64,000 nt of DNA from Dehalococcoidia bacterium (GTDB lineage Bacteria > Chloroflexota > Dehalococcoidia > Bin125). A program made the position numbers and the translations under genes. The notes under the pieces were generated by a model, which was not told the origin of the DNA, did no database searches, and worked only from the letters and a program-made list of their open reading frames with translations. This document shows positions 20,672 through 64,000 of the stretch, piece by piece. The DNA is taken from positions 1,190,099 to 1,254,098 of the forward strand of contig OZ253456.1 in the NCBI GenBank assembly GCA_965261225.1. The letters are read 5' to 3'. Numbering within the stretch: the first letter of the stretch is position 1; every line of letters begins with the position of its first letter.

Positions 20672-20775
20672 AATTGCCTTCCTCCGAGCTCGCGGCGGGC
20701 GGGTGGACTGGTGACATCTGGGTCTTGAGCGCTGCCTCCGGAGACCTACGGCTCAGTGGCTCGACCCCGGATTTG

Positions 20776-23089: not shown

Positions 23090-23103
23090 ATCCGGGCACT
23101 CAG

Positions 23104-31400: not shown

Positions 31401-31511
31401 CAGAACCTGGACAGATAGGACGATGTCGACTGAGTCCAACAGACCGTCGGCGGCGCTGCCGGAGTGGTGCATAGCGCTTTGCCAGACGCCAAATGGAGGT
31501 ACGCTCGGCGA

Positions 31512-31791: not shown

Positions 31792-31802
31792 GGGAGAGTC
31801 CG

Positions 31803-32093: not shown

Positions 32094-32097
32094 GCCT

Positions 32098-32376: not shown

Positions 32377-32397
32377 GACGGCGAATGGAGACTAGCA

Positions 32398-32688
32398 ATG
32401 CCGATGTACAATCCGCCGCACCCGGGGGAAGGTGTTCTGGGCTTGTGCCTGGAACCGTTTGACCTGTCGGTCACGGACGCCGCGGCGCACCTTGACTTGG
32501 ACGAGGGGTATCTGGCCGACCTCTGCGCGGGGCGAGAGCGGATTACGGCTGACCTGGCAATCCGGCTGGAGCAGGCGTTCGGCGGCACCGCCGACAATTG
32601 GATGCGCGTGCAAGCGGCGTACGATCTCGCCCAGATGCGCCTGAAGTCAGACCACATCCAGGTCAAACCAATCGGCTCAGCAGCTTGA
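32398..32688 (+). CDS. higA: HigA-family antitoxin, copy 2
   Basis: The sequence MPMYNPPHPGEGVLGLCLEPFDLSVTDAAAHLDLDEGYLADLCAGRERITADLAIRLEQAFGGTADNWMRVQAAYDL is a paralog of copy 1. Confidence 0.8.
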   Translation: MPMYNPPHPGEGVLGLCLEPFDLSVTDAAAHLDLDEGYLADLCAGRERITADLAIRLEQAFGGTADNWMRVQAAYDLAQMRLKSDHIQVKPIGSAA

Positions 32689-37020: not shown

Positions 37021-38035
37021 GTGTCCTGAGTCGGGAATACGGTTGAGATATGCGGCGAGGTTGTCGAAGATCTGGTCGGCGGTCTTGTGTCAGACGAAGG
37101 GGCGCGGATGTTCGTTCCAGCCGGCGACCCAGCGTTCGATGTCGCCGGTCAGGTCAGACACGCGACAGTGGGCGCCGCGCCGGAGCCATTTGGTGGTCAG
37201 TTCGGCGAACCAGCGCTCAACCAGGTTCATCCAGGAGGTGGGCGTGAAGTGAAAGCGGAAGCGGGGATGACGCTGGAGCCAACGCTGGATCTCGGCGGTG
37301 CGGTGGGTGGCCACGTTGTCCAAGACGACATGCACGGCGAGTTCGTCGGGTACCTGCTCGTCAATCAGGTCGAGGCAGCGCCGGAACTCGCGGGCCCGGT
37401 GTCGCGGAGTCAGGTCGGCGATCACGTGTCGCGAGGCGATATCCAGCGCCGCGTAGAGATTGGTGGCCCCGTGACGCACGTAGCCGTGAGTCTGACGGCG
37501 AGGCGCCGCCGGGCAGCATCGGCCGCGTCGCAGCGGTGCGGTCAAGCGCCTGGATCTGGGTTTGCTCGTCCACGCACAGCACGACCGCCGCGTCGGGCGG
37601 GTCGACCAATGGGTCGCGTGGCGCGGTTGCTGTTCCAGCGTCTTGACGATCACCGCTTCCACCTGCTCATCGCCGATCGTGCGGGGCGCGTCGGGACGCG
37701 GCTCATCGCTCAGCCCATCCAGCCGCCGCTGGGCGAAGCGTCGCCGCCACTTGCCGGCCGTGACCGGATGGCAACCGAGCGCCGCGCCGATCTCAGTATG
37801 CGCCTGCCCGGCCGCCGCCGCGAGCACAATCCGGCTGCGTAGCGCCAAGGCCTGCGCCGTGCTCGGTCGGCGCGCCCAGCGCTCCAGCGTCTCTCGCTCC
37901 TCCGCACTCAACACGATCGTCACCGTCGGGCGGCCCTGTCGGGTACGCATGACACTCCAGCGAAAGCCCCGGACGGCCAAACCGGCTCCATCAACACCAG
38001 ACCCCGTTGTTCATCGCATTAGCGACTCAGGACAC
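37021..38035. mobile_element. IS630-family insertion sequence, degenerate (about 1.0 kb)
   Basis: The terminal inverted repeats are (C)TAGTGTCCTGAGTCG at 37018-37033 and CGACTCAGGACACTG at 38023-38037. The flanking dinucleotides are TA and TG, consistent with IS630 TA-target duplication allowing one mismatch. Confidence 0.65.
37090..37980 (-). pseudogene. IS630-family transposase with an internal deletion and frame change
   Basis: The N-terminal HTH region (RSRIVLAAAAGQAHTEIGAALGCHPVTAGKWRRRF) and the C-terminal DDE region (HVVLDNVATHRTAEIQRWLQRHPRFRFHFTPTSWMNLVERWFAEL) are present. The central ALVLCVDE...QALDRT segment is readable only in another frame (ORF 37361-37609), and about 50 aa are missing ahead of it. 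Confidence 0.7.
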
Positions 38036-42198: not shown

Positions 42199-42351
42199 CC
42201 CAGCCTCCCGTTCCTCATCGACACGCATGCACGGGCTCGGACGCTGTGCACGCACGAGAAGCCGGACCACGCTTGAGCGGGCCCAGACGACTTCCGCCCG
42301 CGGAATCGCATCCTGCACGCGTGACACCGGCGAGGCGAGGCCCAGAGTTCC

Positions 42352-51300: not shown

Positions 51301-53500
51301 GTCGCTCAGTCTGAGCGAGGTCGCGCTGAGTCGCACGTTCTCGCCTGACGTCACTTCGTACACGGCGAGCGTGGCGGACAGCGTCCTATCCACGACCGTG
51401 ACGGCGAACCCGGCTCAGCCCGAGGCCACGGCGGTGGTCAGGTTGGACGGCGTCGAGGACAGCGACGGCATTGTCGAGTTGGAGGAGGACACGACCTCGT
51501 TCAGCATCAGTGTCGTGGTGACCGCGCCCAACCGCACGAACACGCGGACCTACAGCGTCGCCGTCAACCGGGGCAGCGTCGCCGTCACCGGGACAACAGG
51601 CGGCGGCGGTGGCGGCGGCGGCGGCGCGCCGCCGGCGGCGGTCCCCTCCGAGGCCGACTTCGACTGGAACGTGACCCGCGACATCGAGTCGCTGGACCCC
51701 GACCACGACGCGCCGACCGACATCTGGTCGGACGGCCGGACGTTGTGGGTCCTGCAGAACGCGTCGGCGGGCGCCGACGCCGTGTTCGCCTACGAGTCGG
51801 ACAGCGGTGAGCGACAGGCGGAGCGCGAGTTCGAACTCGACCGGCGCAACCGCTTCGCGCACGGCCTCTGGTCCGACGGCGCGACCGTCTGGGTATCCGA
51901 TAGCGGTCAGGACACGCTCTTCGCCTACGAGCTCGGCAGCGGCGAGCGGCTCGAGGCGCGCGACATCGAACTGGCCGAAGACAACCGCGACCCACGCGGC
52001 GTCTGGTCGGACGGCGAGACGATCTACGTGCTCGACAGCGTCCAGGACGCGATCTTCGCCTACGACCTCGAATCGGGCGAGTTGCTGGCCGAGTACCCGC
52101 TGGACACGCTCAACCAGAGCCCGCGCGGGATCTGGTCGGACGGCGTCACGATCTGGGTCTCGGACGACGGCGCCAAGCGCATCTTCGCCTACCGGATCGA
52201 AGGCGGCGTGCTGGTCCGCTACGAGGCTGAGGAGTTCACGTTCCGCTCGCTGCTCAAGGCCGGCAACGGCGACGCGCGCGGGATCTGGTCGGACGGCGAT
52301 GTGATCTTCGTCGCGGACGAACAGGACGACAAGCTCTACAGCTACAACCTGCCCGACGCGATCAACGCGAACCTGGCGGCGCTCAGCTTGAGCGATGTCG
52401 AGATCGGCGCGTTCTCGCCGCTGCGCACCAGCTACGAGGCCGCAATCGGCGCCGCCACGCAGACCACGGTGTCGGCGCAGCCCGTGCGTGAGGACGCGAG
52501 CGTCAGCATCGTTCCGGCCGACGCGGACCCGGCGGACGGACACCAGGTCGCGTTCGCCGGTCTGGACGAGATCGCGGTCACCGTGACCTCACCCGACGGC
52601 AGCCGGACCCGTGTCTATCGCGTCAGCCTCGAACCAGGGCTAACCCCAGTCGACCAGACGCCGCCGGCGTCCGACGAGACTCCGCCGCAACCAGCGGACG
52701 CCGGCGGCGAGTCCAGCAGTGAGCCCAGCAGCGACGAGACGGCGGTTGAGGTGACCAGCGAGGTGCGGATCACGGTGCGCAATGCGCCGGACGGCCGGGT
52801 CGAGTTCGCACTACAGCAGCGCGCCGCCGATGGGAGTTGGGGCGAACGGCTGTTGCCGCGCGGCCGCTTCCTGGCGGCCGATGCGGCGCTCGGACGCTGG
52901 CTGTTCAGCACCCCGGTCGCCATCACGGTCGGCGGCGAGATCCTGGAGCTGCGGATCGGCGCCCGCCGTCTTGAGGACGGCCGGGTCGAGTTCGCACTAC
53001 AGCGCCGGACCGCGGACGGCTCCTGGAGCGGGCGGCTGCTGCCCAGCGCCCGCTATCTCCCGGCCGGGACCGAGGCCGGGCGCTGGCTGGCCAGCAGCGC
53101 CCTCGACGTCGACAGCGCCGGCAGCCTCAACGTGCGCATCGCCGCACGGCGGCTGGACGGCGGCCGGGTCGAGTTCGCCCTGCAGCAACAATCGGCGGAC
53201 GGCGCCTGGGGCGAACGCAACCTGCCCAGCGGCCGCTTCCTGCCGGTCGGAACTGAGGTCGGACGCTGGCTGGCCAGCAGCGCCGTCAACGTTGGCGAGG
53301 CCGCCGCCGGCGCAGTCGTACGCATCGCCGCACGGCGGGCGGCCGACGACCGGGTCGAGTTCGCACTGCAGCAACAATCGGCGGACGGGTCCTGGGGCGA
53401 GCGCCATCCGCCCAGCAGCCGCTTCCTGCCGGTTGAGGCCGAGATCGGACGCTGGCTGGCCAGCAGCGCCCTCGCCGTGTCGCTCGCGGACGCGCCATGA
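45368..53500 (+). CDS. Giant adhesin-like protein 2, main body (2710 aa): cadherin repeats, FN3 domains, five or more copies of an Ig-like SLTFTTVNWAT...VTVTAGxDADTTNDTVSLSH module alternating with FN3, YQW repeats, (Gly)9 linker, GIWSDG beta-propeller, cadherin-like beta-sandwich domain, four C-terminal RIAARRL...GRWLASS repeats
   Basis: The reading frame is +2 relative to the 43881 segment. The frame is open upstream of the first ATG back to about 45280, so the frameshift lies near 45290-45370, where there is a homopolymer-rich stretch (gacaaaaaccgcccc). The repeat modules are near-identical at the DNA level (47380-48960). Confidence 0.7.
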   Translation: MYGLSAVFKVAAVVTNSDPTFAMSTADREVAENTAAGQNVGAVLTASDSDGDTLTYTLEGTDSASFVLDTTTTAGSAQIQTKTGVSYDHEVKSSYSVVVKADDAGGGTAASVTVSIAITDVDEAPERPAAPAVTATSGSTTSLSVSWTEPATTGPDIDDYDLRYREGTSGNWSNGPQNVTATLASIGSLDAGTSYQVQVRATNDEGDSNWSPSGSGSTTAEATPTVSISADKTSAVFKQDGISYTLTRSGSTTGALTVSVTLTQTKDFLLATELTKTVTIAAGQSTKTFTVAASSFQHFAVGTTVEGGTLTAAVQDVLGYDLGTPSSVAVSIVIHSMIGLDQASYTVGEAAGTLTVKLTGRTSPGAPQPTSNTSTVELTPVDQTTSSGDFDASFIAYQFTPSHFSLTGGVWKAEESLAITITNDDLDEDDETFDLEIEYRVGTQHSPLVDASGNSCGSKCTVTVTITDDDTAGVTVSKSSLTVTEQDTTGDSYTVVLDSQPTADVTISVGGQSGTDVTAAPTPMTFTTVNWATPVTVTVTGDDDADTTNDIVSLTHNAASGDSDYQGITIAGLTVSVNDNDTAQVTGLMVEPGNGQLVVQWTAVTGATGYQVQWKSGGQGYNNSGRRAVIGSGSTTSHTIPSLSNGTEYTVRVRATRTGANAGAYSSEVLETPVMPTAAGVTVSKSSLTLTEQDTTGDTYTVVLDRLPTASVTVTVGGLGSSDVTANPSSLTFTTVNWATPQMVTVTAGNDADTTNDTVSLSHSAMSSDSAYQGITIAGLTVTVNDNDTAQVTGLMVEPGNAQLAVEWTAVTGATGYELQWKSGVQSYNTSGRQATISSGSTTSHTIPSLTNGTEYTVRVRATRTGANAGAYSVEVLETPVMPTAAGVTVSKSALTLTEQDTTGDTYTVVLNTLPTATVTVTVGGLGSSDLTANPSSLTFTTVNWATAQTVTVTAGNDADTTNDTVSLSHSAMSGDSDYQGITIAGLTVTVNDNDTAQVTGLMVEPGNAQLAVQWTAVTGATGYELQWKSGVQSYNNSRRAVISSGSTTSHTIPSLSNGTEYTVRVRATRTGANAGAYSSEALETPVMPTAAGVTVSKSSLTVTEQDTTGDTYTVVLDRLPTATVTVTVGGLGSSDLTANPSSLTFTTVNWATAQTVTVTAGDDADTTNDTVSLSHSAMSTDGDYQGITIAGLTVTVADNDTGNTPAEGKPTISGPAQAGRTLTASTAGITDAEGLTTVSYSYQWLASGTAIGGATSSTYSVSASVQGDKISVRLTFDDDEDNPETLTSNATNNAVVPAAVTCPTGTLWCSTLTAGYGTADMDGEFFLGLGAGVDTPPESYGSLDDGAFTHLGAPYTVTQFFADADGLAAIFATSPNLPDDGAGLTLQVQQVSGQREIPLSGKAYSSIPYLPATIKAWQLRTALRSSVTDPLTAPLLRGFDRAYDPYGSQTDEDTEVTVWLTYTNRPAEGGPTISGRAQVGETLTAGMGDIADADGLPTTFPGDYSLQWLRVDADGVSNETPIGADALTYTPLAVDLGKKLRVQVSFSDGGGGSETLTSDAYPSSGTITDDSAAGVTVSKLALTVTEEDSSGDTYTVVLNTQPTASVTVTVGGLGSSDLTATPASLTFTTVNWQTAQTVTVTAGSDTDLTDDTVALSHSAASSDSAYQGITIAGLTVTVADNDDPPPPPPGVRALVSNLYETPASTGTDFETVAQPFTTGNNPDGYVLTSVELRADDTTDDTRFRVQIVTLDGDGEPSALLYTLSNPASIDDGPLTFTAPESANLAADTSYAVQVVISSANGGPNPGATLDVTPSWNEDLALYGWSIANTRFKRSSDTDPWSSSFTRLVQLRIRGAFYIGPSNNATLAALTLADAADDSAIALNESVAAGTTAYTAEVEDGVETITINAETADDGATVAFLDGSGAALADADATADGWQVQLGASATTIQVTVTAEDASTRTYTVTLVVIDTSDATLQSLSLSEVALSRTFSPDVTSYTASVADSVLSTTVTANPAQPEATAVVRLDGVEDSDGIVELEEDTTSFSISVVVTAPNRTNTRTYSVAVNRGSVAVTGTTGGGGGGGGGAPPAAVPSEADFDWNVTRDIESLDPDHDAPTDIWSDGRTLWVLQNASAGADAVFAYESDSGERQAEREFELDRRNRFAHGLWSDGATVWVSDSGQDTLFAYELGSGERLEARDIELAEDNRDPRGVWSDGETIYVLDSVQDAIFAYDLESGELLAEYPLDTLNQSPRGIWSDGVTIWVSDDGAKRIFAYRIEGGVLVRYEAEEFTFRSLLKAGNGDARGIWSDGDVIFVADEQDDKLYSYNLPDAINANLAALSLSDVEIGAFSPLRTSYEAAIGAATQTTVSAQPVREDASVSIVPADADPADGHQVAFAGLDEIAVTVTSPDGSRTRVYRVSLEPGLTPVDQTPPASDETPPQPADAGGESSSEPSSDETAVEVTSEVRITVRNAPDGRVEFALQQRAADGSWGERLLPRGRFLAADAALGRWLFSTPVAITVGGEILELRIGARRLEDGRVEFALQRRTADGSWSGRLLPSARYLPAGTEAGRWLASSALDVDSAGSLNVRIAARRLDGGRVEFALQQQSADGAWGERNLPSGRFLPVGTEVGRWLASSAVNVGEAAAGAVVRIAARRAADDRVEFALQQQSADGSWGERHPPSSRFLPVEAEIGRWLASSALAVSLADAP

Positions 53501-53674: not shown

Positions 53675-53911
53675 ATGGATTCTGGTCAACCCGAGCCACG
53701 CGCCCGACTCAATCCTGATGCCGTCTGGGCCCAGCTCAATCGGCGCAACCTGGCGCAGAACGAACTCGCACGCGCCGCCGGCATCACATCTGGATACCTC
53801 TCCCAGTTGATGAGCGGGACACGCTACCCATCGGCCGCGGTGAGAACGCGGCTGGCAGAGGCGCTTGGCCTGGAAGATCGCGACCTCTTCACTCTTGACC
53901 TGGATGACTAG
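53675..53911 (+). CDS. XRE-family helix-turn-helix transcriptional regulator
   Basis: The HTH is LAQNELARAAGITSGYLSQLMSGTRYPSAAVRTRLAEALGL. It is 78 aa long and divergent from the helicase-led minus-strand gene block, as a prophage or integrative-element repressor typically is. Confidence 0.7.
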   Translation: MDSGQPEPRARLNPDAVWAQLNRRNLAQNELARAAGITSGYLSQLMSGTRYPSAAVRTRLAEALGLEDRDLFTLDLDD

Positions 53912-54115
53912 CCGCCGTCCCTGGCGTCCTACCTGCTCAGGTTCACCGCTCAGGCCTGGGCATCTCGCATCTGAGCTGCCGAGCAGACTGGCGCTGGTCG
54001 CTTGCCTCGCAGGCTTTGGTCGATGGCGCGTGCGCCACGGACACGAAAAAAGCGTCCCACACATGCGACCGCGGGGAGGTCATTGCCGATGTGGCAATGA
54101 CCTCCCCGCTTGCGC

Positions 54116-56473
54116 TCAACCGGCTGCAGCAAGTCCGGCGCCTTGCTCCTGTTCCAGCGCCCACTCGAACAACGATGGCGAGGCTGGTTGCGCCTGGCGC
54201 CCGCGCCGCTTCGACGGCTGAGGCGGCTCAGCCATGAACTCGGTCCAACTGAACAGTGACGGCTGCGCTTGCGGCAATTTGTGATGGCCGCCGCAGGGAA
54301 CCAGTTCCAGTACCGATTCCTCATGGCGGTCGCTGGGGATCGTCACGACCAGCGGTCGCGCCTCCGGTTCGACGCGCTCCCAGCCGTCATCGACCAGCAA
54401 CGCGTCGGCGTCGGCCGCGACCTGCTGCGCCTGCTGGAAGATGTCTTCGACCGGCTCGTCGTCGGTCTCGCCGGCGATCAGCTTGCGCGCCAGGGCCATC
54501 ATCAGGTCGTCGCCGCTGTCGCCGTAGGCGGCCAGCCCGTCTTCGGGCAGGTCGCCCTCGACCGCCAGCGAGGATTGCAGCTTCTGCGCGACCAGCTTGA
54601 GCGCGTCGGCCTGCAGCGTCGAGCGGTAGGCCATGAACACGACCTTGACCGGCTCGCTCTGGCCGATTCGCCACGAGCGCCTGGAGGCCTGGCGCATCGT
54701 GTAGACCGAGTAGTCGGTCTCGTACCAGCAGATCGTCGGAAAGGCGATCAGGTCGAGTCCGGTCTGGACCAGCCTGGGGTGGCAGATCAGGACATCGACG
54801 CCTTCCTTGACCCGCTTCGCGACCCAGGCCTCGCGCTGCTTGGGTTCAACCCGGTCGGCCTTCATCACTGCGGTGCGGAAGCCGTGCCGGGTGAGCAACG
54901 ACTCCAGCCGGCCGGTGATGTCCCGCGTTCCGGTGTGGGTGGCGTAGACCAGCACCCGCCTTCCGGCCATCCGCTCCTTGGCTACCAGATCGATCAGCTG
55001 CTGCTCCTTGGGATAGACGCGCTCCTCGTCGAGCGGCGGCAGTTGCACGATCAAGTCGCCGGAGTCGGGGTCGAACACGGACTCGCCCCTGGTGCAACCC
55101 TCGGGATAGGCCAGTAGCGCCTGCAGGTAGGTCGAGAGCAGCCGCGCCGAGCCGCGCTCGATCGCCTGCAGCAGGGCCCGCTTGAGGTTCGTCGAGAGGA
55201 TGCGATAGGCCGAAGCCTGAGAGAATCCGCTGTCGTCCTCTTCGGTGTCCAAGCTCGTCACCTGGATCTGCTCCTCGTAGGCCGGCAGTCCCGAGGCGAC
55301 ATCAGCGAGGCGCAGGAACAGCGAGTGGCCGATGATGTGGAACAGCGCCGCCGGCGCCATCCCCGGCCGCTCCTTGACCTGCTTGCGGTAGCCGCGGCGG
55401 CGCGACTGCGAGCCGTCCTCAGTCGGATCGTCGTCACGGTCGTTGCGCACCCGCTGCTCGAGGAAGCCGTAACGCTCGACCCACTTGTGCTCCTCGGCGC
55501 GGCCGAACTCCGAGCGGATCTCCGGCGAGAAGCGGTAGAGCAGGTGGAACAGGGTTGAGGCGTGGCCGCCCATCAGGGTTCCCGAGAGGGCCAGCGACTT
55601 GCCGCAGGCGTCGGCCAGGATGCCGGCCGAGACGCCCTGCGCGGAGCCGCGACCCTTGTGTTCGTGCACTTCGTCCACGATCAGCAGGTCGAAGTAGCCG
55701 CGCATGCGCTGCTTGACGTAGTCGGCCAGGGGGTACTTGCGCGGGCCCCGGCCGGGCGACCGGCGAGCCATCAGACCGGCGTTGTAATCGGTCGTCACGT
55801 TCTGCACCGGACGCGCCTCGGCCGTCCACAAGGGCGTCCCGCACTTGGGGCACTTGTGACGCTTCTTGTTCAGCGCCGTGTGCGAGACGGGGACGCCTTC
55901 GCCATCCACGATCTGCGTGGTGCAGTCGGGACAGGCCGGGGTCATGACGAACGCGCCGGTCTGCTCGTCGCGTACGGGCAGGCCGTCCTCATCGGTGAGC
56001 CGGCGCATCCAGTAGGCGGGCCGGAAGCGGTGGCCCAACTTGGCCCGCGAGTGCGACATGACCACGTACTGGGGGCCGGAACCCTCCTGGCGGCGCAGTG
56101 CTTCGAGGTCGGTGATGCTGTCGGCGATGCCCGTGCGGACCAGCGGGATGGTCTCCTCGATCTCGCGCTGCCACTTGCCGACCAGGTGCGGCGGACAGAG
56201 CACCAGCACGCGGCGGAAGCCGGCCAGCTGCGCGGCGGCGATGCCGATGAACGTCTTGCCCACGCCCATTTCGCCGACGACGGTCGTGCCGCGCTGCTCG
56301 GTCAGGCTCAGCGCGGCGCCGCGGATCACGGTCTCCTGGGCGCCCATCGGTTGGCGCTTGAGCGGCGGCATCGGGCGGTCGTCCGCCGCCGGTCGGTACC
56401 TGGGTGGGTAGCTGTGGACGATCCGCTTGGTGATCGCCTCGCGGTAGGTGTCGATGAACTCTGAGAGGTTCAT
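54116..56473 (-). CDS. SNF2-family helicase with an internal zinc ribbon (phage/ICE-type)
   Basis: Walker A is GEMGVGKTFIGIAAA, DExH is LLIVDEVHEHKG, helicase motif VI is QASRRSWRIGQSEPVKVVFM, and the zinc ribbon is CPDCTTQIV...CPKCGTPLW. Confidence 0.8.
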   Translation of the reverse strand: MNLSEFIDTYREAITKRIVHSYPPRYRPAADDRPMPPLKRQPMGAQETVIRGAALSLTEQRGTTVVGEMGVGKTFIGIAAAQLAGFRRVLVLCPPHLVGKWQREIEETIPLVRTGIADSITDLEALRRQEGSGPQYVVMSHSRAKLGHRFRPAYWMRRLTDEDGLPVRDEQTGAFVMTPACPDCTTQIVDGEGVPVSHTALNKKRHKCPKCGTPLWTAEARPVQNVTTDYNAGLMARRSPGRGPRKYPLADYVKQRMRGYFDLLIVDEVHEHKGRGSAQGVSAGILADACGKSLALSGTLMGGHASTLFHLLYRFSPEIRSEFGRAEEHKWVERYGFLEQRVRNDRDDDPTEDGSQSRRRGYRKQVKERPGMAPAALFHIIGHSLFLRLADVASGLPAYEEQIQVTSLDTEEDDSGFSQASAYRILSTNLKRALLQAIERGSARLLSTYLQALLAYPEGCTRGESVFDPDSGDLIVQLPPLDEERVYPKEQQLIDLVAKERMAGRRVLVYATHTGTRDITGRLESLLTRHGFRTAVMKADRVEPKQREAWVAKRVKEGVDVLICHPRLVQTGLDLIAFPTICWYETDYSVYTMRQASRRSWRIGQSEPVKVVFMAYRSTLQADALKLVAQKLQSSLAVEGDLPEDGLAAYGDSGDDLMMALARKLIAGETDDEPVEDIFQQAQQVAADADALLVDDGWERVEPEARPLVVTIPSDRHEESVLELVPCGGHHKLPQAQPSLFSWTEFMAEPPQPSKRRGRQAQPASPSLFEWALEQEQGAGLAAAG

Positions 56474-56475
56474 GG

Positions 56476-56661
56476 TTACTCCTCAATGTGGGCCCGCGCG
56501 TCGCGGACGCAGTCGGGCAGGCTCTCGTAGTCGTCCCGGCTGCGGTTGCAGGCGCAGCACCAGGAGAAGGTTCCCGTGCCGGTCTCCTCGCCGTGCTCGT
56601 TGATGGTCACGGTCTTGTCGAAGTAGATCTGGCAACCTCGGTCGTTGATCCAGGGGTTCAT
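56476..56661 (-). CDS. Small Cys-containing protein (61 aa), translationally adjacent to the helicase gene
   Basis: The sequence MNPWINDRGCQIYFDK...FSWCCACNRSRDDYESLPDCVRDARAHIEE ends 3 nt before the helicase start. It is a typical small phage-module ORF. Confidence 0.35.
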   Translation of the reverse strand: MNPWINDRGCQIYFDKTVTINEHGEETGTGTFSWCCACNRSRDDYESLPDCVRDARAHIEE

Positions 56662-56902
56662 GCTTGGCGTTCCGTTCTAGCCCGACCGGCGACAGTGCGG
56701 GTCGGGCGGGCTGATGGTCTAGGCGCTGAGCGGGAGCGGCAGCTGTCGCTCGGGGGCGACGGTGCTGAGGCGCTCGGCCAACAGTCGGGCGTCGTCGCGG
56801 TCGGCGCAGTCGTCGAGGTCGATCCACTCGAGTTCGAGCAGCTCGGCGATGACCTGTCCGATCGTGACGTAGGCGTTGAAGTCCGGTAGCGGCGGCGTGC
56901 GC

Positions 56903-57136
56903 TCAGGCATCGGTCGCCAACCAGACGAGATCCGAGGGCTGCCAATCCACCAGTTCGACGTGGTCGTCGGGCTGCCAGTCGAACATCGGGAAGTCTCGCT
57001 CGCGGACGCCGCGGGCCTCTTGCCGTGCGCAGGTCGCGCACCGGTTGAGCGTGGGCGCCTCGGCGTCAGGCGTGAGGCTCTGGTCTCCGACTCGGTAACT
57101 CTCGCGGCAAGAGCCGCACTGGGTAGTCTGGGTCAT
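56903..57136 (-). CDS. Small zinc-ribbon protein
   Basis: The sequence MTQTTQCGSCRESYRVGDQ...LNRCATCARQE has two CxxC pairs. The listed ORF extends to 57265. Confidence 0.3.
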   Translation of the reverse strand: MTQTTQCGSCRESYRVGDQSLTPDAEAPTLNRCATCARQEARGVRERDFPMFDWQPDDHVELVDWQPSDLVWLATDA

Positions 57137-57198
57137 GTCAGTTCTCCGTATCTGACTAGAGCGGGCGAGGGGTACGATCCCTCGCTCGCTCGCTGGTT

Positions 57199-57489
57199 TC
57201 AGTTGGTGCAATCGCAGGGGTCGGGCGACTCCAGCGATTGCTCGATGAGGCCGCAGCCCGAACACTCCCAGCGGGTGAACCCGTGCTGGTGAAACTGCCG
57301 CCAGGTCTGGCGGCGAGGTTCGTCGTCCGTGATCCGGTCGACGCTGCGGGGCGTGTGCTGCGTCATGTAACCGCAGCCGTCGCAGGGTCCTCGGACGATC
57401 TCGGTCTCGTGGTACCGATAGTCGAAGTACTCGGCGGACGACTGGCGGCCGCAGCGGTCGCAGGCGTAGTGAACTCTGAGTCGGGGCAT
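57199..57489 (-). CDS. Zinc-ribbon protein (4 CxxC-type motifs)
   Basis: The motifs are CDRCGRQ, CDGCGY, CSGCGL and CDC, in 96 aa. Confidence 0.45.
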   Translation of the reverse strand: MPRLRVHYACDRCGRQSSAEYFDYRYHETEIVRGPCDGCGYMTQHTPRSVDRITDDEPRRQTWRQFHQHGFTRWECSGCGLIEQSLESPDPCDCTN

Positions 57490-57584
57490 GGTGGGTCTCC
57501 AGTTCCGGTGTGGGCGCTGTGAGTGGTGGCGCGCGTCGCGCCCGACCGCGCTTGGGGTCGTGAGATTGATTTGGTTCGGGGCTG

Positions 57585-58613
57585 TTACGCCTCGATCCGT
57601 TCGATCCGGCCCGTGTCGAGGTCGAGCGTGACCACGCTGGTGCAGAGTTGCTCGCGGTAGACGTCGTGCGTCTCGCCCTCCTCGACCAGGACCATCTCCT
57701 TCGTCGTGCGTCCCTTGACGAGGACGCGCGATTCGGGCGTTTCCAGTTCGAGGTTGTCGAGGAAGCCGGCCGCGACCAGCATCGCCAGGTGTCCCTTGCG
57801 CAGCGGCATCAACGGGCGCGTGGAGCGGTCGCTGGGCGGCCAGAACGCGTCCGTGATCTCCTCCTGGGTCCAGAGACCGCGCGCGCGTGCCTCGGCGACC
57901 GCCTTCTGGAAGTCGATCACCCGAGTCGTGAACATCGCCGCTCCGGGCGGCGAGTGCCCCACGTCGTAGACGGGTTGCAGGTCCTGACGCAGCGGCGTCA
58001 GCTCGTCGATACTCCCGAGCAAGTCGTTCATCGCCCGAGCGTCAGGTCGCGGATGTTCCTTGCGCAGACCCATGACCACGACCTGGTTGAACTGCTCGAT
58101 CTCGGGCTCGGGGAACGCCCAGGCCCGGACGCGGGCGTAGTTCGTGGTCAGGAACCGCGCCGAGGTCGCGATCTGCGCACGCGGGATGATGTAGACGAGC
58201 ACGCCCGAGGGCTCCAGGTAGCGGGTGCAGTGGGTCAGGAACGCGTGCTCGACCCGCTTGTCTTCGCGGTCGTGGTCGTAGGGCGGGTTCAACCAGAGCA
58301 GATTGAACGTGCGGTTGGCGATCGAACAGCGGAAGAGGTCGCTGGCCAGCGCGTGGTCGAGCTGTTCCGCCGCCTGCTGCGCGCGCTCGGTCTGCAGTTC
58401 GACGCCGTAGGTCTCAACCGTCATGCTGCGCTTGATCGAATCGGCCAGCTGCCGCAGGGCGTCGCCCGGGCCGCAGCAGGGGTCGAGCAGTCGGACGATC
58501 TGGTCGCGGTTGCGGCTGTAGCGGATCGGCGCCATCAGCAGCGAGCGGATGTAGTCGACTACGCGCGGCGGCGTGGGGTAGTAGCCGCCTTTGGCTTGTC
58601 CGGCGAGTCTCAT
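57585..58613 (-). CDS. SAM-dependent DNA methyltransferase (N6-adenine/N4-cytosine type, NPPY motif); no adjacent restriction partner
   Basis: Motif I is VRLLDPCCGPGDAL and motif IV is LLWLNPPYDHD. It sits in a phage-like gene block with no cognate endonuclease nearby. Confidence 0.75.
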   Translation of the reverse strand: MRLAGQAKGGYYPTPPRVVDYIRSLLMAPIRYSRNRDQIVRLLDPCCGPGDALRQLADSIKRSMTVETYGVELQTERAQQAAEQLDHALASDLFRCSIANRTFNLLWLNPPYDHDREDKRVEHAFLTHCTRYLEPSGVLVYIIPRAQIATSARFLTTNYARVRAWAFPEPEIEQFNQVVVMGLRKEHPRPDARAMNDLLGSIDELTPLRQDLQPVYDVGHSPPGAAMFTTRVIDFQKAVAEARARGLWTQEEITDAFWPPSDRSTRPLMPLRKGHLAMLVAAGFLDNLELETPESRVLVKGRTTKEMVLVEEGETHDVYREQLCTSVVTLDLDTGRIERIEA

Positions 58614-58972
58614 TGGTTGTCTTCCTTTCGGTTGTCGGCCTCAACGAGGCTGATCAGGTGGTCTTCGAGGTCTTCGGCGATCTGGGGATCTGCCAGCCGG
58701 ACTCCTGCGGTTGCAGTAGCCAGCCGGCCGTCTCCCCCGGACCGCGTTGGACCGTGATGATGATCTGGTCGTCTGACGCTTCGGTCATTGGTTCTCCTCC
58801 CGGTACTGCTCAAGCAGGTTGAGCAGGTGGTCGTGGATGTCCTCGTGGAAGCCTTCGTCGATCTGCGATCCGTCCTCCTTGAGGTCGAAGTTGTAGATCG
58901 CGGTGATCTCCTCGCCGGCGATATCGTGTTCGCCGGCTCGGGTCTCGACGGTGACCGCGACGTAGCGATGAC

Positions 58973-59647
58973 TCATGCGGGTGCGCCGTTCAGTTCACGC
59001 GGCAGCTTGAGCGCGCCGTACTTGACAGCCGCCGAGAGCTCCGATTCGAGCAGGTCCGGGTCGTGGTAGCAGGACCAGGCGTGCAGGCCCTCCGACTTGA
59101 GCGGTCTGATCGCTCCGCTGTCGAGCCCGTGTTCCCAGAGCCAGTCGGCCCAGCTGTGATGCAGCGGCAGCTCGCTGCGCTGGTTGAGGAAGCGCAAGTG
59201 CAGCGCCGGCGCTTCGGCGGCGTCCGGAGTCAACAGCAGGAAGGCGTCGCGCTCAAACGAGAGTTCCGCCATCTGCGTGTAGACCATCGCGTGCCAGGCG
59301 CCCGCCTGCGGCAACCGCGCGATCTTGGTCTTCCAGGTGCCGATGCTGCTCTCGGGGATCTGATAGCTCTCGTAGCCGCCCTCGTGGATACCGTCGGCCG
59401 CGCCTTTGATCAGGAACGCGGGTTGCGGCGGTGAGTTGAGCAGCGCCGCCCAGATCGCCTTGAGCGAGGTCTGGGCGCCGACCATCGAAACGAACCAGAG
59501 CTGGTTCTGCTCGGGGTCGGAGGCGAACGCGTCGACCGTGGCCGAGAAGCCGCCGGCCGTAATCGTGTAAAGCTGGGTTGCCTGCCCCGCACTTGATGCG
59601 GGCGAGAGCTCATCTCCTGAGGGAGACGTGGTGTGGGTGTCGAGCAT
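58973..59647 (-). CDS. Hypothetical protein (224 aa) in the phage-like module
   Basis: It is co-oriented and tightly packed with flanking module genes (its start overlaps the upstream small ORF). Confidence 0.4.
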   Translation of the reverse strand: MLDTHTTSPSGDELSPASSAGQATQLYTITAGGFSATVDAFASDPEQNQLWFVSMVGAQTSLKAIWAALLNSPPQPAFLIKGAADGIHEGGYESYQIPESSIGTWKTKIARLPQAGAWHAMVYTQMAELSFERDAFLLLTPDAAEAPALHLRFLNQRSELPLHHSWADWLWEHGLDSGAIRPLKSEGLHAWSCYHDPDLLESELSAAVKYGALKLPRELNGAPA

Positions 59648-59686
59648 GGCTCGTCCTTTCGTTGAATGCGGTGTTGGGGAGCGGGC

Positions 59687-60226
59687 TCAGGCGAGGAGGC
59701 CCTGGCCCTTGAGGCTGGTCCAGCCGTCCGAGCCGACCACGACGTGGTCGAGCAGTTCGATACCCAGGAGCTGGCCGACCTCGACCAGGTCCTTGGAGAG
59801 CTTGATGTCGTCGCGGCTCGGTTCGGGGTCGCCCGAGGGATGGTTGTGCACGACCACGATGTGCGGCACGGCCTCGACCACGGCGGGGCGGAAGACCTCG
59901 GCCGGGCGGACCAGCGCGCAATAACCATTGCCCCCCGATCGAGTCGGGGGCAGGCTCTGGTAGATCGTGCGCTGGCCGACGACGCGGTTCTTGCGGTCGA
60001 GCAAGACCCGCACTTGTTCCTGGGCGAGCCGCGACATCTCCTCGCCGAGCAGCTCGACGACCGTCTCGGGCCGGTAGATGGTGGGCATGTCCAAGGGCCG
60101 CTCGGGCCGGGTCTCGACCTCGTAGCGGATCGCCAGTTCGCCGAGCAGGTTGAGGTTCTGGCGCAGGGCGTCGAGCAGCGCCTGCTGCTCGGCGTTCGCG
60201 GGGATGGTTTCGGTCAGGGTGGTCAT
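59687..60226 (-). CDS. radC: RadC-family JAB/MPN-domain protein
   Basis: The JAMM motif is HIVVVHNHPSGDPEPSRDDIKLSKDLVEVGQLLGIELLDHVVVG. Confidence 0.8.
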   Translation of the reverse strand: MTTLTETIPANAEQQALLDALRQNLNLLGELAIRYEVETRPERPLDMPTIYRPETVVELLGEEMSRLAQEQVRVLLDRKNRVVGQRTIYQSLPPTRSGGNGYCALVRPAEVFRPAVVEAVPHIVVVHNHPSGDPEPSRDDIKLSKDLVEVGQLLGIELLDHVVVGSDGWTSLKGQGLLA

Positions 60227-60335
60227 CTCGGGTTCCTTTCAGGTAGTGGGAACGAAGCGGGGCCGCTCCCCTCGTTGGTGGGAGAGCGGCCCCGTGATGC
60301 GCCTCGGTAGAGGCGTCGGTTCGTGTGATGTGTGA

Positions 60336-60734
60336 CTAGAAGGGTTGGTCGCTCCCCGATCGAGTCGGGGACAGGCTGTCCGACTGGCGGCCGTTGCCCT
60401 GGCCATTGCCATTACGGCTGTCGAGGAAGACGACTTCGTTCGCGTGGACCTCGGTCGTCTGACGGCGCTGGCCGTCCTGGTCCTCCCAGCTGTCGTAGCC
60501 GAGCCGGCCCGCGGCGTAGATCCGGTCGCCCTTCCGGACGTACTCGGCGACGGCCTCGGCGGTCTTGCCCCAGACCACGAGGTTGTGCCAGTCGGTCTGG
60601 CTCTCCCCGTTTCCGTTGCGGCGGTCGGTCGCCAGCCGCAAGCGGCAGACGGCGGTCCCGTTCTTGGTCTGGCGCAGTTCGGGTTCGGTCCCGACCCGGC
60701 CCAGGAGTTCGATTCGGTTGATCGTTCGTGACAT
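60336..60734 (-). CDS. ssb: Single-stranded DNA-binding protein (copy 1)
   Basis: The OB-fold is INRIELLGRVGTEPELRQTKNGTAVCRLRLATDRR...DWHNLVVWGKTAEAVAEYVRKGDRIYAAGRL...EVHANEVVFL, with a Gly-rich tail ending DQPF. The listed ORF extends to 60818. Confidence 0.85.
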   Translation of the reverse strand: MSRTINRIELLGRVGTEPELRQTKNGTAVCRLRLATDRRNGNGESQTDWHNLVVWGKTAEAVAEYVRKGDRIYAAGRLGYDSWEDQDGQRRQTTEVHANEVVFLDSRNGNGQGNGRQSDSLSPTRSGSDQPF

Positions 60735-60878
60735 TGGTCGTGCTCCTTTCAGAGAGCGCGTGTTGGCGCGGGACTCCCGCGCCTGTGTGCGAAACAGAAG
60801 CGGGTCCGCCCTCCGCATTGGTGGGAGAGCGGCCCCGAAGTGCGCCTCAGCGAAGGCGTCAGATGGCGTGATTGGTGA

Positions 60879-61247
60879 CTAGAAGGGTTGGTCACCACCG
60901 GACTGGCGACCGTTACCCGTCCCGTTGCGCGAGTCGAGGAAAACGACCTCGTTCGCGTGGACTTCGGTTGTCTGACGGCGCTGGCCGTCCTGGTCCTCCC
61001 AGCTGTCGTAGCCGAGCCGGCCCGCGGCGTAGATCCGGTCGCCCTTGTGGACGTACTCGGCGACGGCCTCGGCGGTCTTTCCCCAGCAGATGAGGTTGTG
61101 CCAGTCGGTCTGGCTCTCGCCGCCCGAGTTGCGGCGGTCGGTCGCCAACCGCAAGCGGCAGACGGCCGTGCCGTTCTTGGTCTGGCGCAGTTCGGGGTCG
61201 GTTCCGACCCGGCCCAGGAGTTCGATCCGGTTGATCGTGCGTGACAT
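60879..61247 (-). CDS. ssb: Single-stranded DNA-binding protein (copy 2, tandem paralog, about 90% identical)
   Basis: The sequence MSRTINRIELLGRVGTDPELRQTKNGTAVCRLRLATDRRNSGGESQTDWHNLICWGKTAEAVAEYVHKGDRIYAAGRLGYDSWEDQDGQRRQTTEVHANEVVFL ends in DQPF. Confidence 0.85.
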   Translation of the reverse strand: MSRTINRIELLGRVGTDPELRQTKNGTAVCRLRLATDRRNSGGESQTDWHNLICWGKTAEAVAEYVHKGDRIYAAGRLGYDSWEDQDGQRRQTTEVHANEVVFLDSRNGTGNGRQSGGDQPF

Positions 61248-61397
61248 TGGTAGTGCTCCTTTCAGAGAGCGTGTGTTGGCGCGGCCTGCCCCCGACTTGA
61301 TCGGTGGACTGCCCGCGCCTGTAGGAAACGAAAGCGGGGCCGACCTCCAATGTGTGGAGACCGGCCCCGTGTTCTGACCTCTCAGAGGAGGGGTCGC

Positions 61398-62462
61398 CTA
61401 GCTGACTCGGAGGTATTCCGAGGTTTGCTCGGTCACGATCTCGGCCCGCTGTTCGGGTTCGAGCAGCGCGTTGAGCCGCTTGTGGTCGACCGCGTAACGG
61501 CGACTCGTGACCATGCCGACGATGCGGGTCTTCTCGGATCCCTCCAGCTTGGCCTTGGCTTCTCCTTTCCCTTGCAGCCACTGCTGGAGAGTCTTGAGCG
61601 CGACTCGCTTGTCGGCGTCGAGCGACTTGAGCTGTCGTTGGACCTGCTCGTACTCGCGCAGCGCGCCTTGCGCCGCCTCGTCCGACACCGGCTCGACCGG
61701 CTCGATTTCGGCCTCGTCGGACGCCTCAATCGCCTGGCCGGGCTGGCAGGCGTTGAGGTAGGGGCAGCGGCGGCATTGCCAGTCCGAAGCCTCGAAGTCG
61801 CGTTCCGGCAACGCCTCGGGGTCGGGACCGCATGCCTGGTAGCGGTCGGCGAGCGGCGCCAGCCGTTCGCAGGCTCGGTCCCAGGCCCGCTCGATGCGGT
61901 CGGCTGGGATTACTTCGTAGTCCCAGCGCCGCGAACCCGTGTCGAGCGTGGCGATCACTGTCTCGCGGAAATCGCCGTAGACCCCGAGCGTGTAACAGGC
62001 GGCCTGGGCCACCGACTCGGGGTGGCTGCGCTCGGCGCCCAGCGTCTGCCAGCGCTTGAACGCCTCGGGGCCGCGCGTCTTGACCTCGATCACCCGTTCG
62101 TCGCCGAACAGTTCGATCGCGCCGGTCGCGTCGGGGTGACCGGTCACGGTCAGTCCCGGCACGGCCTCAACCGCGACTTGCAGCGGCGCCTGCGGGTCGG
62201 CCGGGGTGACCGTCCAGAACCGGCGCTGCATGGCGCGGACGACGACCGGTTCGAGCGCCTGGCCGACTTCGAGCACGGTCTTGGTCTCGTCCGACATCGG
62301 GTTGGTCACCTCCTGCTCGGTGGCCGCGTACCAGAGGGCGCGGCGGCACTGGCCCAGGGCGGAGGCGCGGACTTCGATCCGTCCGTCGTCGGTGAACCGC
62401 GCGGCAGGGCGGTCGAAGACGCGAGAGCGGCTCGGAGTCAGGGGTGGGTTGCTGAGGGTCAT
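61398..62462 (-). CDS. PD-(D/E)XK-type exonuclease (YqaJ/lambda-Exo-like), likely partner of the annealing protein
   Basis: It has the D...ExK pattern GHPDATGAIELFGDERVIEVKTRG, and a CxxC pair later (CRRCPYLNAC). It lies directly downstream of the Rad52-like gene, in the order typical of phage recombination modules. Confidence 0.55.
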   Translation of the reverse strand: MTLSNPPLTPSRSRVFDRPAARFTDDGRIEVRASALGQCRRALWYAATEQEVTNPMSDETKTVLEVGQALEPVVVRAMQRRFWTVTPADPQAPLQVAVEAVPGLTVTGHPDATGAIELFGDERVIEVKTRGPEAFKRWQTLGAERSHPESVAQAACYTLGVYGDFRETVIATLDTGSRRWDYEVIPADRIERAWDRACERLAPLADRYQACGPDPEALPERDFEASDWQCRRCPYLNACQPGQAIEASDEAEIEPVEPVSDEAAQGALREYEQVQRQLKSLDADKRVALKTLQQWLQGKGEAKAKLEGSEKTRIVGMVTSRRYAVDHKRLNALLEPEQRAEIVTEQTSEYLRVS

Positions 62463-62548
62463 GGTGGATACCTTTCTGGGTTCCGGTAGAGAGGAAGAGC
62501 GGGGCCGCCACTTCAGTGCGCGGCCCCGCTGTGCTCGGTGGGCTGGGG

Positions 62549-63454
62549 CTAGCTGTGCTCGGCCTGCTGCCGCTGTTCGAGCTTCTCGGCGGCGGAGGCG
62601 ATCAGCGGGTTGATCTCGTCCGGGCCGAGTTCGTCCAGCGGGCGACCGGTCTTGGCTTCGACGGCGGCGCGGACTTGCTGCTCGGAGAAGCCCTGCTGCG
62701 CGCTCAGCTCGATCAGGTGCGCGCGCAGGTTTACGGCATCGCGCCCGTCGTCCCGGACCGGTTCCGCCGACGGTTGAGCAACCCGGCGTCGCGGCTGCTG
62801 CTGGGCGCTGCGTTCGGACGGTTGCTGCCGGCGAGGCTGTGAGGCCGGTTCGGACTGTCGGCCGTTGCGCGTGTTCGTTGGCGGGTCTCCGTAGAGGCCG
62901 TTGCCGAAGCGGTCGCCGAAGCTGCGCAAGGCTCGCTTGAGTGCGTCGGTGACCGCCCCTTTGAAGGCCGTTTCGTGGCCGTCCGCGGGCTCGCCCGTGA
63001 CCGCCTGGAAGCCGACGTCGGTGCGCGAAGGCGCGCCCGGCACCGTGACCCGGACCATCGCCGAGTAGGCGGCGCTGCGCGTGACTTCGCCGGTGCGCGA
63101 GTCTGTGGACTCGATCTGCCGCATGGTCACATCGCCAATCAACTCATAGCCCCAACCGCCGAATCCGAAGATCCGGTTGGCCTGATCGATCGCTGTGTGG
63201 CCCTCGATGTAGTCGAACTTACGTCCGCCGCGGCCCTTGCGCTGCGAGACCAGCGCCGGGTCGAGCGGTTGCGCCAGCGCGTCGCTGACGACCGGCGCCA
63301 GCGCGTCCCAGTGCAGCGCCTCCATCGCGCTCGACGTGGGGATGTGCTCGAGGATCGTGGGGGCCGCGCCGTTCGGTCGCGAACCGTTTCCGTTCCTGCG
63401 AACCGCTGTCGCGGTTCCATTTCCGTTGCTGTTGCGGTGAGTTCCGTTGTTCAT
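62549..63454 (-). CDS. Rad52/Sak-family single-strand annealing protein
   Basis: The signature is RKFDYIEGHTAIDQANRIFGFGGWGYEL...AVTDALKRALRSFGDRFGNGLYGD. The listed ORF extends to 63535, so the likely start is MNNGTHRN. Confidence 0.7.
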   Translation of the reverse strand: MNNGTHRNSNGNGTATAVRRNGNGSRPNGAAPTILEHIPTSSAMEALHWDALAPVVSDALAQPLDPALVSQRKGRGGRKFDYIEGHTAIDQANRIFGFGGWGYELIGDVTMRQIESTDSRTGEVTRSAAYSAMVRVTVPGAPSRTDVGFQAVTGEPADGHETAFKGAVTDALKRALRSFGDRFGNGLYGDPPTNTRNGRQSEPASQPRRQQPSERSAQQQPRRRVAQPSAEPVRDDGRDAVNLRAHLIELSAQQGFSEQQVRAAVEAKTGRPLDELGPDEINPLIASAAEKLEQRQQAEHS

Positions 63455-63604
63455 CTCGTACTCCTCATTCAGTGGTGTGCGTGGTTGGTGAGCGCGGTTG
63501 CCCGTTGGGGCAACCGTGAGCCGTGCCGCGGGCACGGTCGGCCAGGGGCCATAGGCAGGCCCTCCGTTCGTTTGATTGGGTCTCGTGAGTTGGTGGGTTG
63601 GCAG

Positions 63605-64000
63605 CTACCGAGCGGCCATGGCCGCTCGGCGCAGCAGGTTGAGGAAGGCGGTGCGGCCGTCGGGCCGCGTGGCCAGTTCAGCCACATCGCCGACGCCCTC
63701 AGGCAAGGTCACGACCGCGCTTCGGTGGTGGCCGAGCAGGTCGCGAAGTTGACCGGCGGCGTCGCGTCCGGCGTCGTCCGCGTCGAACGCGAGGAAGACG
63801 CGGGGCTGTCCCTCCAGGGCGGAAGCGACCTTGTCCATTCCCTGCGTGCCCAAGGCGGCACAGGCGGGCAGGCCCCAGGAGGCCAGCGCGAGCCAGTCGA
63901 ACAGTCCCTCGGCGACGACGATCCACGGAGTCGGCGAAGGAACCGCCGCCAGACCGAGCACAGGCTTGCGCCCGGGCAGCGCCTGGAATCGCGGCTTAGC
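63605..64000 (-). CDS. Toprim-domain protein (primase-like), partial; 5' end beyond the window
   Basis: The Toprim acidic motif is PRVFLAFDADDAGRDAAGQL. The ORF is open to the window edge. Confidence 0.5.
   Translation of the reverse strand, partial: AKPRFQALPGRKPVLGLAAVPSPTPWIVVAEGLFDWLALASWGLPACAALGTQGMDKVASALEGQPRVFLAFDADDAGRDAAGQLRDLLGHHRSAVVTLPEGVGDVAELATRPDGRTAFLNLLRRAAMAAR

Follow-up and report, generated by a model that had tools for sequence, protein, structure and literature searches.

What kind of genetic element carries the dense run of DNA-handling genes at positions 53675-64000 of a 64,000-nucleotide stretch of Dehalococcoidia DNA (contig OZ253456.1), the whole of which is here called the window? 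An earlier note, made from the letters of the sequence, had read these genes as the early replication and recombination region of a prophage or an ICE (integrative and conjugative element). We put at about 0.8 the probability that the DNA from 54030 to beyond 64000 is the DNA-processing and establishment operon of a family of integrated conjugative elements in Dehalococcoidia. Mating-pair formation genes, including that for VirB4, are present in the relatives L002/L043, L003 and L041 (L numbers denote loci of the family) and in most other loci of the family, the window itself ending before this region. The adjoining type IV secretion system (T4SS), the absence of phage structural families and the finding of only two distant relatives of the operon's helicase in IMG/VR together support a conjugative element and led us to reject a prophage. 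Thus, of the two possibilities raised in the note, the ICE was borne out by T4SS genes in relatives 97-99% identical to the window, while the prophage fell with the lack of phage structural genes.

As a module the block is of an ordinary and well-known mobile-element type, found here in a little-studied host group. Conjugative elements have hardly been described in Chloroflexota, and our literature searches found no account of this Chloroflexota family.

Gene content of the operon

The operon comprises 17 genes, all on the minus strand, and runs from 54116 to beyond 64000. Gene identities were assigned by Pfam scans, supplemented with PHROGs, PDB comparison, PADLOC and NCBIfam, and cluster labels (c5, c7, c14 and so on) are from our own clustering of the open reading frame (ORF) calls of the family loci. 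From right to left the window holds the following.

63605-64000, minus strand, gene continuing past the window: C-terminal Toprim part of a DnaG-type primase (Toprim_2, 6e-12)
62549-63454, minus strand: Rad52/22-family single-strand annealing protein, 301 aa from its ATG (PF04098, 2e-30)
61398-62462, minus strand: Cas4-like PD-(D/E)XK exonuclease, 354 aa (PDDEXK_1, 22.6 bits against a cut-off of 22)
60879-61247, minus strand: single-stranded DNA-binding protein (SSB) copy 1, 122 aa, with a C-terminal DQPF tip (PF00436, 2e-34)
60336-60734, minus strand: SSB copy 2, 132 aa from the conserved start (PF00436, 3e-35)
59687-60226, minus strand: RadC-like JAB-domain protein, 179 aa (PF04002, 4.5e-29)
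58973-59647, minus strand: conserved 224-aa protein c5, function not assigned, named a Chloroflexi hypothetical protein
58785-58976, minus strand: acidic 63-aa ORF, isoelectric point (pI) 4.4
58654-58788, minus strand: 44-aa ORF
57585-58613, minus strand: DUF6094 N6-adenine-type DNA methyltransferase, 342 aa, with an NPPY motif (PF19587, 5e-27)
57199-57489, minus strand: 96-aa ORF, eight Cys in CxxC pairs, zinc ribbon
56903-57136, minus strand: 77-aa ORF, two CxxC and an acidic tail, zinc ribbon
56719-56910, minus strand: 63-aa ORF, pI 4.05
56476-56661, minus strand: 61-aa ORF with five Cys
54116-56473, minus strand: SNF2-like superfamily 2 (SF2) ATPase/helicase, 785 aa, with a zinc-ribbon insert (Helicase_C, ResIII)

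Most of what the note had recognised here agreed with the profile matches, namely RadC, the two SSB paralogs, the exonuclease with its Rad52-like partner, the SNF2 helicase on the minus strand and the zinc-ribbon ORFs, two of which have clear CxxC pairs. The Toprim gene does run off the window, there being no stop codon within 63605-64000. Its PHROG match is a DNA primase (7.5e-39), and the full protein in relatives such as L001 has 364 aa, with Zn_ribbon_DnaG and Toprim domains. The two SSB genes are a tandem duplicate (a direct repeat of 300 nt at 91% identity), and their number varies from 1 to 3 across the family. Both ORFs of 44 and 63 aa next to c5 are gene calls in relatives and belong to conserved clusters (c22 and c17). 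Modelling of c5 gave a beta-barrel with helices and matched no nuclease fold. Scans with Rfam and for tRNA genes found nothing, and hence no tRNA target, and a sigma-70 promoter scan of the block gave 0 sites, the sigma-70 model being uninformative for this phylum.

The exonuclease matches Cas4-domain exonucleases (2.6e-16) and RecE-like proteins (3e-10) among the PHROGs, and a reading of its sequence finds a single Cys near the N-terminus and a CxxCx5C at the C-terminal end, a pattern that resembles an Fe-S cluster site. A Rad52-superfamily annealing protein thus adjoins a PD-(D/E)XK exonuclease, the arrangement by which a putative two-component recombinase is recognised. Garriss et al. 2009 reportedly described a Bet/Exo/SSB recombination module in the SXT/R391 ICEs, and that module, like lambda Red/RecET, appears comparable in placing an annealing protein beside a 5'-3' exonuclease and an SSB, in the ICE case on a conjugative element. 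However, the annealing protein here is of the Rad52/Sak type rather than Red-beta, and the exonuclease, unlike lambda Exo, is Cas4-like with four Cys. The set is of interest as a compact group of recombination proteins from a high-GC monoderm host.

Relatives of the operon and the adjoining transfer genes

When each species was represented by a single genome, a scan for the family turned up 27 loci, spread over about 15 Dehalococcoidia/Chloroflexota genomes that have 1-5 copies apiece. Their DNA is 75-89% identical to the window operon, and the gene order is the same in nearly all. Over the wider set of about 40 retrieved loci, again from roughly 15 genomes, DNA identity to the operon ranges from 70 to 99%. 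The copies lie in chromosomes of 3.1-3.6 Mb, with one on a separate 142-kb replicon, and one carrier genome, 'bin125', is from the sponge Aplysina aerophoba (PMC5649159). Since the block is present in several copies at differing places, it is not conserved chromosomal core, which was part of the outcome that the note had named as fatal to its reading. In clusters at 90% identity the family is represented by more than 600 VirB4 clusters and 413 c5 clusters. Given this size and the several diverged copies per chromosome, the family is probably one of the main routes by which uncultured Dehalococcoidia exchange genes.

In most loci the DNA-handling operon diverges, head to head, from a T4SS operon. 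The left operon, read leftward, holds VirB4, c24, c20, pilin, VirB6 and c14. The right operon, read rightward, holds c7, a variable stretch, c9, c15, primase, Rad52, exonuclease and one to three SSBs, and continues through RadC, c5, small ORFs, the methylase and further small ORFs to the SNF2 gene, which is its last. Outward of VirB4, in distant copies, there follow directly a coupling protein of 840-895 aa (TrwB_AAD_bind and TraG-D_C, at weak scores) and then a Replic_Relax protein of about 540 aa (42.6 bits against a Pfam cut-off of 25.3), beyond which a short convergent operon ends in a conserved 253-aa Crp-like gene. On OZ253471.1 the backbone, taken from the 253-aa gene as far as the SNF2 terminator, is 29.2 kb long.

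The note had proposed that the DNA past 64000 be searched for primase, terminase, structural and integration genes, and the flanks of relatives allowed this: they contain primase and T4SS genes, and no terminase, capsid or tail gene. Exact copies of the Rad52 and exonuclease proteins occur on four other contigs that are 97.5-98.8% identical to window 51.4-64 kb, the closest being L002/L043 (98.7-98.8%), with L001/L042 at 98.0% and L003 and L041 also among the four. In all four the primase is preceded by three small unassigned genes and a 271-aa gene (c7). In L002/L043, L003 and L041 T4SS genes follow in the opposite direction, 4-10 kb beyond the equivalent of the window end, in the order 204-aa protein (c14), TrbL/VirB6-like protein, pilin, a protein of about 590 aa with a PrgI-like N-terminus, a 109-aa protein and a VirB4-like ATPase. 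VirB4 is nearest to the Clostridioides CD1110 family (7e-63) and the pilin to the Mbov_0395 family, a Mycoplasma ICE pilin, both in NCBIfam, which places the T4SS with the Gram-positive type.

These findings bear directly on the view that the block belongs to a prophage, as its early region for replication and recombination, and that the structural genes lie beyond the window. An annealing protein with an exonuclease, an SSB, a primase and a methylase are a classic phage set, and PHROG families do match the primase, SSB, RadC, exonuclease and helicase. However, the Pfam tables of about 45 flanks of 10 kb contain no terminase, portal, capsid, tail or lysis gene, and T4SS genes adjoin the operon instead. 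The helicase family is rare in phage records, IMG/VR contains just two relatives of the helicase, at 30-33% identity, and Toprim primases of this type have been reported solely with T4SS elements (PMC5512222). We therefore regard a prophage as extremely improbable.

The junction of the two operons, between c14 and c7, carries an inverted repeat with 19-bp arms that covary between subfamilies. About 24 nt past it lies a conserved motif, GGGCGTGTACAGGAATC, followed by short repeats that are specific to the subfamily (GATTGCAC, ATGGGGA/C or GTTGGACAA). The sites are as follows.

L002, about 5470-5580: inverted repeat and motif region upstream of c7
L003, about 4440-4545: inverted repeat and motif region upstream of c7
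L001, 5326-5342 and 5554-5570: two motif copies with different repeat types
L011, 1484-1500 and 3069-3085: two motif copies with different repeat types

Together, the repeat and the motif are plausible as a candidate origin of transfer (oriT) and operator region, for which the hairpin after the SNF2 gene, described below, is an alternative structured site. The mosaic junctions of L001 and L011 at GGGCGTGTACAGGAATC suggest that modules may have been exchanged by recombination at a nick-like or operator site.

L001 also raises the possibility that the window copy is a remnant without a T4SS, or a mobilisable derivative, which either relies on sister elements for transfer or is inert. In L001/L042 an RES/Xre toxin pair and Cas2/Cas1 stand in the place of the T4SS (L001 1-5221, corresponding to some 68-73 kb from the window start), and the gap beside Cas2/Cas1 in L001 probably holds a CRISPR array. 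Homology between L001 and L002 breaks between the inverted repeat and the motif, that of L001 starting exactly at GGGCGTGTACAGGAATC. The T4SS and Cas/RES variants are both found in one sample (ERZ25071132), and several copies of the family are visibly decayed. Against this, the closest relative, L002/L043, as well as L003 and L041, retains the T4SS, and none of the 17 ORFs of the window copy is truncated relative to the family. It is therefore rather unlikely that the window copy is such a remnant, and a conjugative element with its own T4SS remains our preferred reading.

Known elements with a comparable T4SS are the Clostridioides conjugative transposons (CTn elements) and Tn5397, which are ICEs whose T4SS is of the Firmicutes/Actinobacteria/Tenericutes type and which encode a large serine recombinase. 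The present family is like them in its CD1110-type VirB4, PrgI-like VirB3, VirB6-like protein and Mycoplasma-ICE-like pilin, and in the large serine recombinase at the outer edge of sister elements. It differs in its Chloroflexota host, in its putative Replic_Relax relaxase, in having several diverged copies per chromosome and in its cargo, which here includes giant FN3/cadherin proteins.

Individual loci showed further peculiarities. L024, L026, L028 and L029 have a 602-aa protein, c27 (e.g. L029 13672-15480), inserted inside the operon, which from its YADD motif and C-terminal HNH-like region looks like a group II intron reverse transcriptase. In L014 (19388-20945) a second c7 gene begins 1.1 kb after the SNF2 end, so that there are either two elements or two operon copies in tandem, without a T4SS between them. 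An insertion sequence (IS; DDE_Tnp_1) splits VirB4 in L046 (16678-17634), where the coupling protein is also in two pieces. Both methylase and helicase are broken in L002 (14848-15878 and 16996-18969), which may be sequencing error, the contig having 3x coverage.

The methylase-helicase pair and a proposed establishment model

The methylase had been called an orphan in the earlier note. Its DUF6094 match, its LNPPYD sequence and our failure to find a restriction nuclease partner agree with that description, as do weak matches to N6_Mtase in Pfam and to TaqI/BseCI in PDB with its class, but it is coupled to the SNF2 helicase and in that respect has a partner. The closest solved structures to the helicase are all SNF2 enzymes, e.g. 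CHD1L, INO80 and SWR1. An exhaustive profile search with the methylase returned 1808 representative proteins at E <=1e-10, many of about 340 aa and a substantial set of 1050-1540 aa with the methylase N-terminal. In one such fused protein, P0262 (1139 aa), the methylase occupies residues 3-338 and the helicase 345-1092, and the window helicase aligns to the latter with 45% identity over 777 residues; further alignments of it are with the C-terminal portions of P0285 and P0306. Because these fused homologues align in this way, the two window genes are split halves of one methylase-helicase enzyme family. In P0306 (1540 aa) about 440 aa are inserted precisely within the helicase Walker A (GTGK|C...HN|T), an insertion with the hallmarks of an intein.

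The four small ORFs between the window halves are kept as clusters c11, c16, c12 and c10 in 17-23 loci. L040, which belongs to a more distant subfamily, lacks all four, and its helicase gene comes immediately after the methylase gene (10687-14209), for which reason we take the four to be an insertion into, or an accessory to, the pair.

A dyad of DNA methylase and SNF2 helicase, with P1 DarB as its archetype, has been proposed to methylate incoming DNA via the SNF2 motor, and the same study notes RadC domains likewise and finds Toprim primases solely in the company of T4SS elements (Iyer et al. 2017, PMC5512222). The window pair resembles P1 DarB, the Pseudomonas ICE pKLC102 and the conjugative plasmid pOCEPR01 in coupling an NPPY adenine-type methylase to an SNF2-like SF2 ATPase. 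The halves are fused in homologues such as P0262 and adjacent in pKLC102 and pOCEPR01, and lie among early genes for RadC, SSB and primase; in pOCEPR01 the pair adjoins ArdC-like and RES/Xre genes. In contrast, the window halves are encoded separately, with four small ORFs intervening, and are stand-alone rather than part of a polyvalent or virion protein. The relation to P1 DarB itself is assumed, its links being partial matches to the long phage profiles phrog_62 and phrog_9133. Across records the helicase family occurs in 333 plasmid entries (117 typed conjugative) versus 15 phage entries. The family also supplies a natural split version of the methylase-SNF2 dyad.

A methylase, an SNF2 helicase and a nuclease could also be envisaged as a host defence system of the DISARM, BREX, MADS or Dpd kind, lying in a defence island. 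PADLOC gave weak matches of the methylase to mad2 (4e-13) and of the helicase to ZorD (1.6e-8), DpdE (1.6e-6) and DrmD (6.5e-5), and genes for Type ISP, type I and type III restriction-modification and ApeA flank sister elements. However, the matches (to MADS, Zorya, Dpd and DISARM) span generic methylase and helicase lobes only, and no other component of DISARM, BREX, MADS, Dpd or Zorya was found. The pair always accompanies the primase, SSB and Rad52 genes and the T4SS, and is kept on conjugative plasmids and pKLC102; no restriction-type nuclease partner was found, and the 224-aa c5 does not model as a nuclease. A defence system is for these reasons very unlikely, and we return to the operon as part of a conjugative element.

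For such an element the following course may be proposed. After single-stranded transfer the SSBs would coat and protect the entering strand and the primase would start the complementary strand. The methylase, moved by the SNF2 motor, would methylate the incoming element and let it escape restriction, as proposed for P1 DarB. The annealing protein and exonuclease would repair or recircularise broken copies and recombine co-resident elements, in the manner of SXT/R391 Bet/Exo, and additional anti-defence functions may fall to the small acidic and zinc-ribbon proteins.

Plasmid leading regions are enriched in orphan methylases, SSBs, toxin-antitoxin and anti-defence genes, which face one way with respect to the transferred strand (Samuel et al. 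2024, PMC11541004). The window element shares with those of F, ColIb and pESBL an SSB, a partnerless methylase, toxin-antitoxin genes and small proteins, as well as a single gene orientation and a position adjoining transfer genes. It differs in that no homologue of PsiB, ArdA or ArdC was detected and in that its operon adds an annealing protein-exonuclease pair and a primase. A further difference concerns four GC-rich hairpins on the minus strand between genes of the operon (60258-62530), each with a CTT(T)CGTT-like tail of the CTTTCGTT type.

62499-62530, minus strand: hairpin after Rad52
61335-61369, minus strand: hairpin after the exonuclease
60801-60837, minus strand: hairpin after SSB copy 1
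60258-60294, minus strand: hairpin after SSB copy 2

They form a repeat family (D8), have fold z-scores of -2.9 to -6.0, and include one that is terminator-like by its own match. Frpo-like structures were sought among these hairpins and none was found, the hairpins being short and terminator-like in appearance; we read them as probable terminators or attenuators and not as F-type single-stranded DNA promoters.

Probable element boundaries and cargo

The start of the block at 53675, as delimited in the earlier note, proved arbitrary. When the sequences that follow the SNF2 stop codon were aligned for 27 copies, conservation extended for about 85 nt and then ceased, which places the end of the conserved backbone near 54030 and leaves the XRE gene and the giant FN3 gene outside it.

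54025-54115, minus strand: conserved backbone end, with a hairpin of 17 bp (54068-54106) followed by a second, short stem and a T-run
53675-53911, plus strand: XRE-family helix-turn-helix (HTH) gene (HTH_31/HTH_3, Pfam), downstream of the giant FN3 gene

Across copies the hairpin has 14-17 bp, with compensatory changes in eight of the 14 consensus pairs; its fold z-score is -6.7, and there is a terminator-like match at 54075-54056. The XRE gene is not divergent from the operon, as had been stated, but convergent with it, tail to tail, ending at 53911 versus the SNF2 end at 54116. It is common only to the 97-99% relatives (L001-L003, L041), with one 62% homologue in L005 in the other orientation, and is probably cargo rather than backbone.

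The note had placed the remainder of the element beyond 64000. This is so in part, but we infer that a further part lies to the left, at 29.3-54 kb, where the window holds the following.

29305-30948, minus strand: large serine recombinase, 547 aa (Resolvase, Recombinase, Zn_ribbon_recom)
31464-32688, plus strand: two tandem, diverged HigB/HigA-like toxin-antitoxin pairs
33756-36902, minus strand: Type-ISP-like N6 methylase/specificity protein, 1048 aa (Pfam, tblastx)
37090-37980: IS630-type DDE_3 transposase, adjoining the 1395-aa cadherin-like gene
38140-42327, minus strand: giant cadherin-like protein, 1395 aa, probable cargo
45368-53500, plus strand: giant surface protein, 2710 aa, FN3 and cadherin-like (Pfam on the L001 orthologue), probable cargo

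The serine recombinase reads outward to ordinary metabolic genes (HAD, AtuA, GMC oxidoreductase). It has 74% amino acid identity to the outermost gene of the L046 sister element and 54% to that of L031; in both of these the recombinase is the outermost gene, in L031 standing 2 kb outside the backbone. The first HigBA pair is about 77-81% identical in amino acids to the pair adjoining the recombinase in L046, and the Type-ISP-like methylase 84-90% identical to a cargo gene of L044, by the far end of the OZ253471.1 sister element. Recombinase, HigBA and methylase all have counterparts at cargo ends of sister elements, which puts the probable start of the element near 29.2 kb. The recombinase is thus a candidate integrase marking its left end, and the element probably spans from about 29.2 kb to well past 64000, with the transposase, both giant adhesins and the XRE gene as cargo. 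In L031 and L046 the recombinase lies on the side of the 253-aa gene and here it lies on the SNF2 side, a difference that would follow if, on a circular map, one variable region closes the backbone and holds the recombinase and attP in either orientation.

Several points weigh against the conjugative-element reading as a whole. The window copy could lack a T4SS, since its close relative L001 has RES/Xre and Cas1/Cas2 in that place, and decay is evident in some copies, in the form of split genes and an IS within VirB4. The relaxase assignment is a single Pfam domain, Replic_Relax. The label of leading region is unproven, the oriT being a candidate; if the inverted repeat upstream of c7 is the oriT, the operon would lie on the sense strand and F-like transcription from single-stranded DNA would not occur. 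The link of the serine recombinase to the element is drawn in spite of its position on the opposite side from that in L031/L046. No attachment (att) sites, empty site or circular junction were found: in the empty-site search an exact-match look-up of the HAD protein found nothing, and a metagenome scan with AtuA gave relatives of <=76% identity, with no synteny in common beyond AtuA. Lastly, the biochemical roles given to the operon's proteins are all assigned by homology.

Two further searches concerned the boundaries. The HAD gene at 28487-29035 was considered as a split target and rejected, as it is not truncated and has the DLDDT motif I. No integrase was found within 5 kb of the SNF2 end in the sister copies L039 and L040.

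Giant surface proteins are prominent around the backbone. Four with cadherin, Big_9 or FN3 domains lie in the 64-kb window, including one at 10623-15664 (minus strand), and the gene for the 2710-aa protein has a third-position GC content (GC3) of 0.91, like the operon. The 1043-aa and 2710-aa proteins have a C-terminal propeller-like domain in common, which also ends the adhesin beside the SNF2 end in L025. A giant Ig, cadherin or Calx-beta gene, differing from locus to locus, abuts the SNF2 end in at least eight of about 24 readable loci, L011, L019, L022, L023 and L025 among them, and the window adhesins lie between the outward-reading recombinase and the backbone. We tentatively suggest, as a possibility that falls short of an even chance, that the element family is a vehicle by which host-attachment adhesins and defence cassettes are passed around and reshuffled among these Dehalococcoidia, its boundaries enclosing the giant FN3/cadherin proteins at 38-53.5 kb. 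This would make for a possible link of conjugation with the spread of giant adhesins and defence systems.

Elsewhere in the window, at 2218-2979 (minus strand), a 253-aa Crp-like HTH protein has 59-69% amino acid identity to the conserved last gene of the backbone. This gene stands by itself and is upstream of a further giant FN3/cadherin gene, one that is cut off by the window start (<=1265, minus strand). A second backbone copy at 1-10 kb was considered and rejected, tblastx showing only this gene in common. Finally, genes for a bifunctional ATP-sulfurylase/APS kinase, a short-chain dehydrogenase and a sulfotransferase lie together at 18881-23182 (minus strand) in a stretch of lower GC, and may form a cluster that serves to sulfate a surface glycan or lipid.

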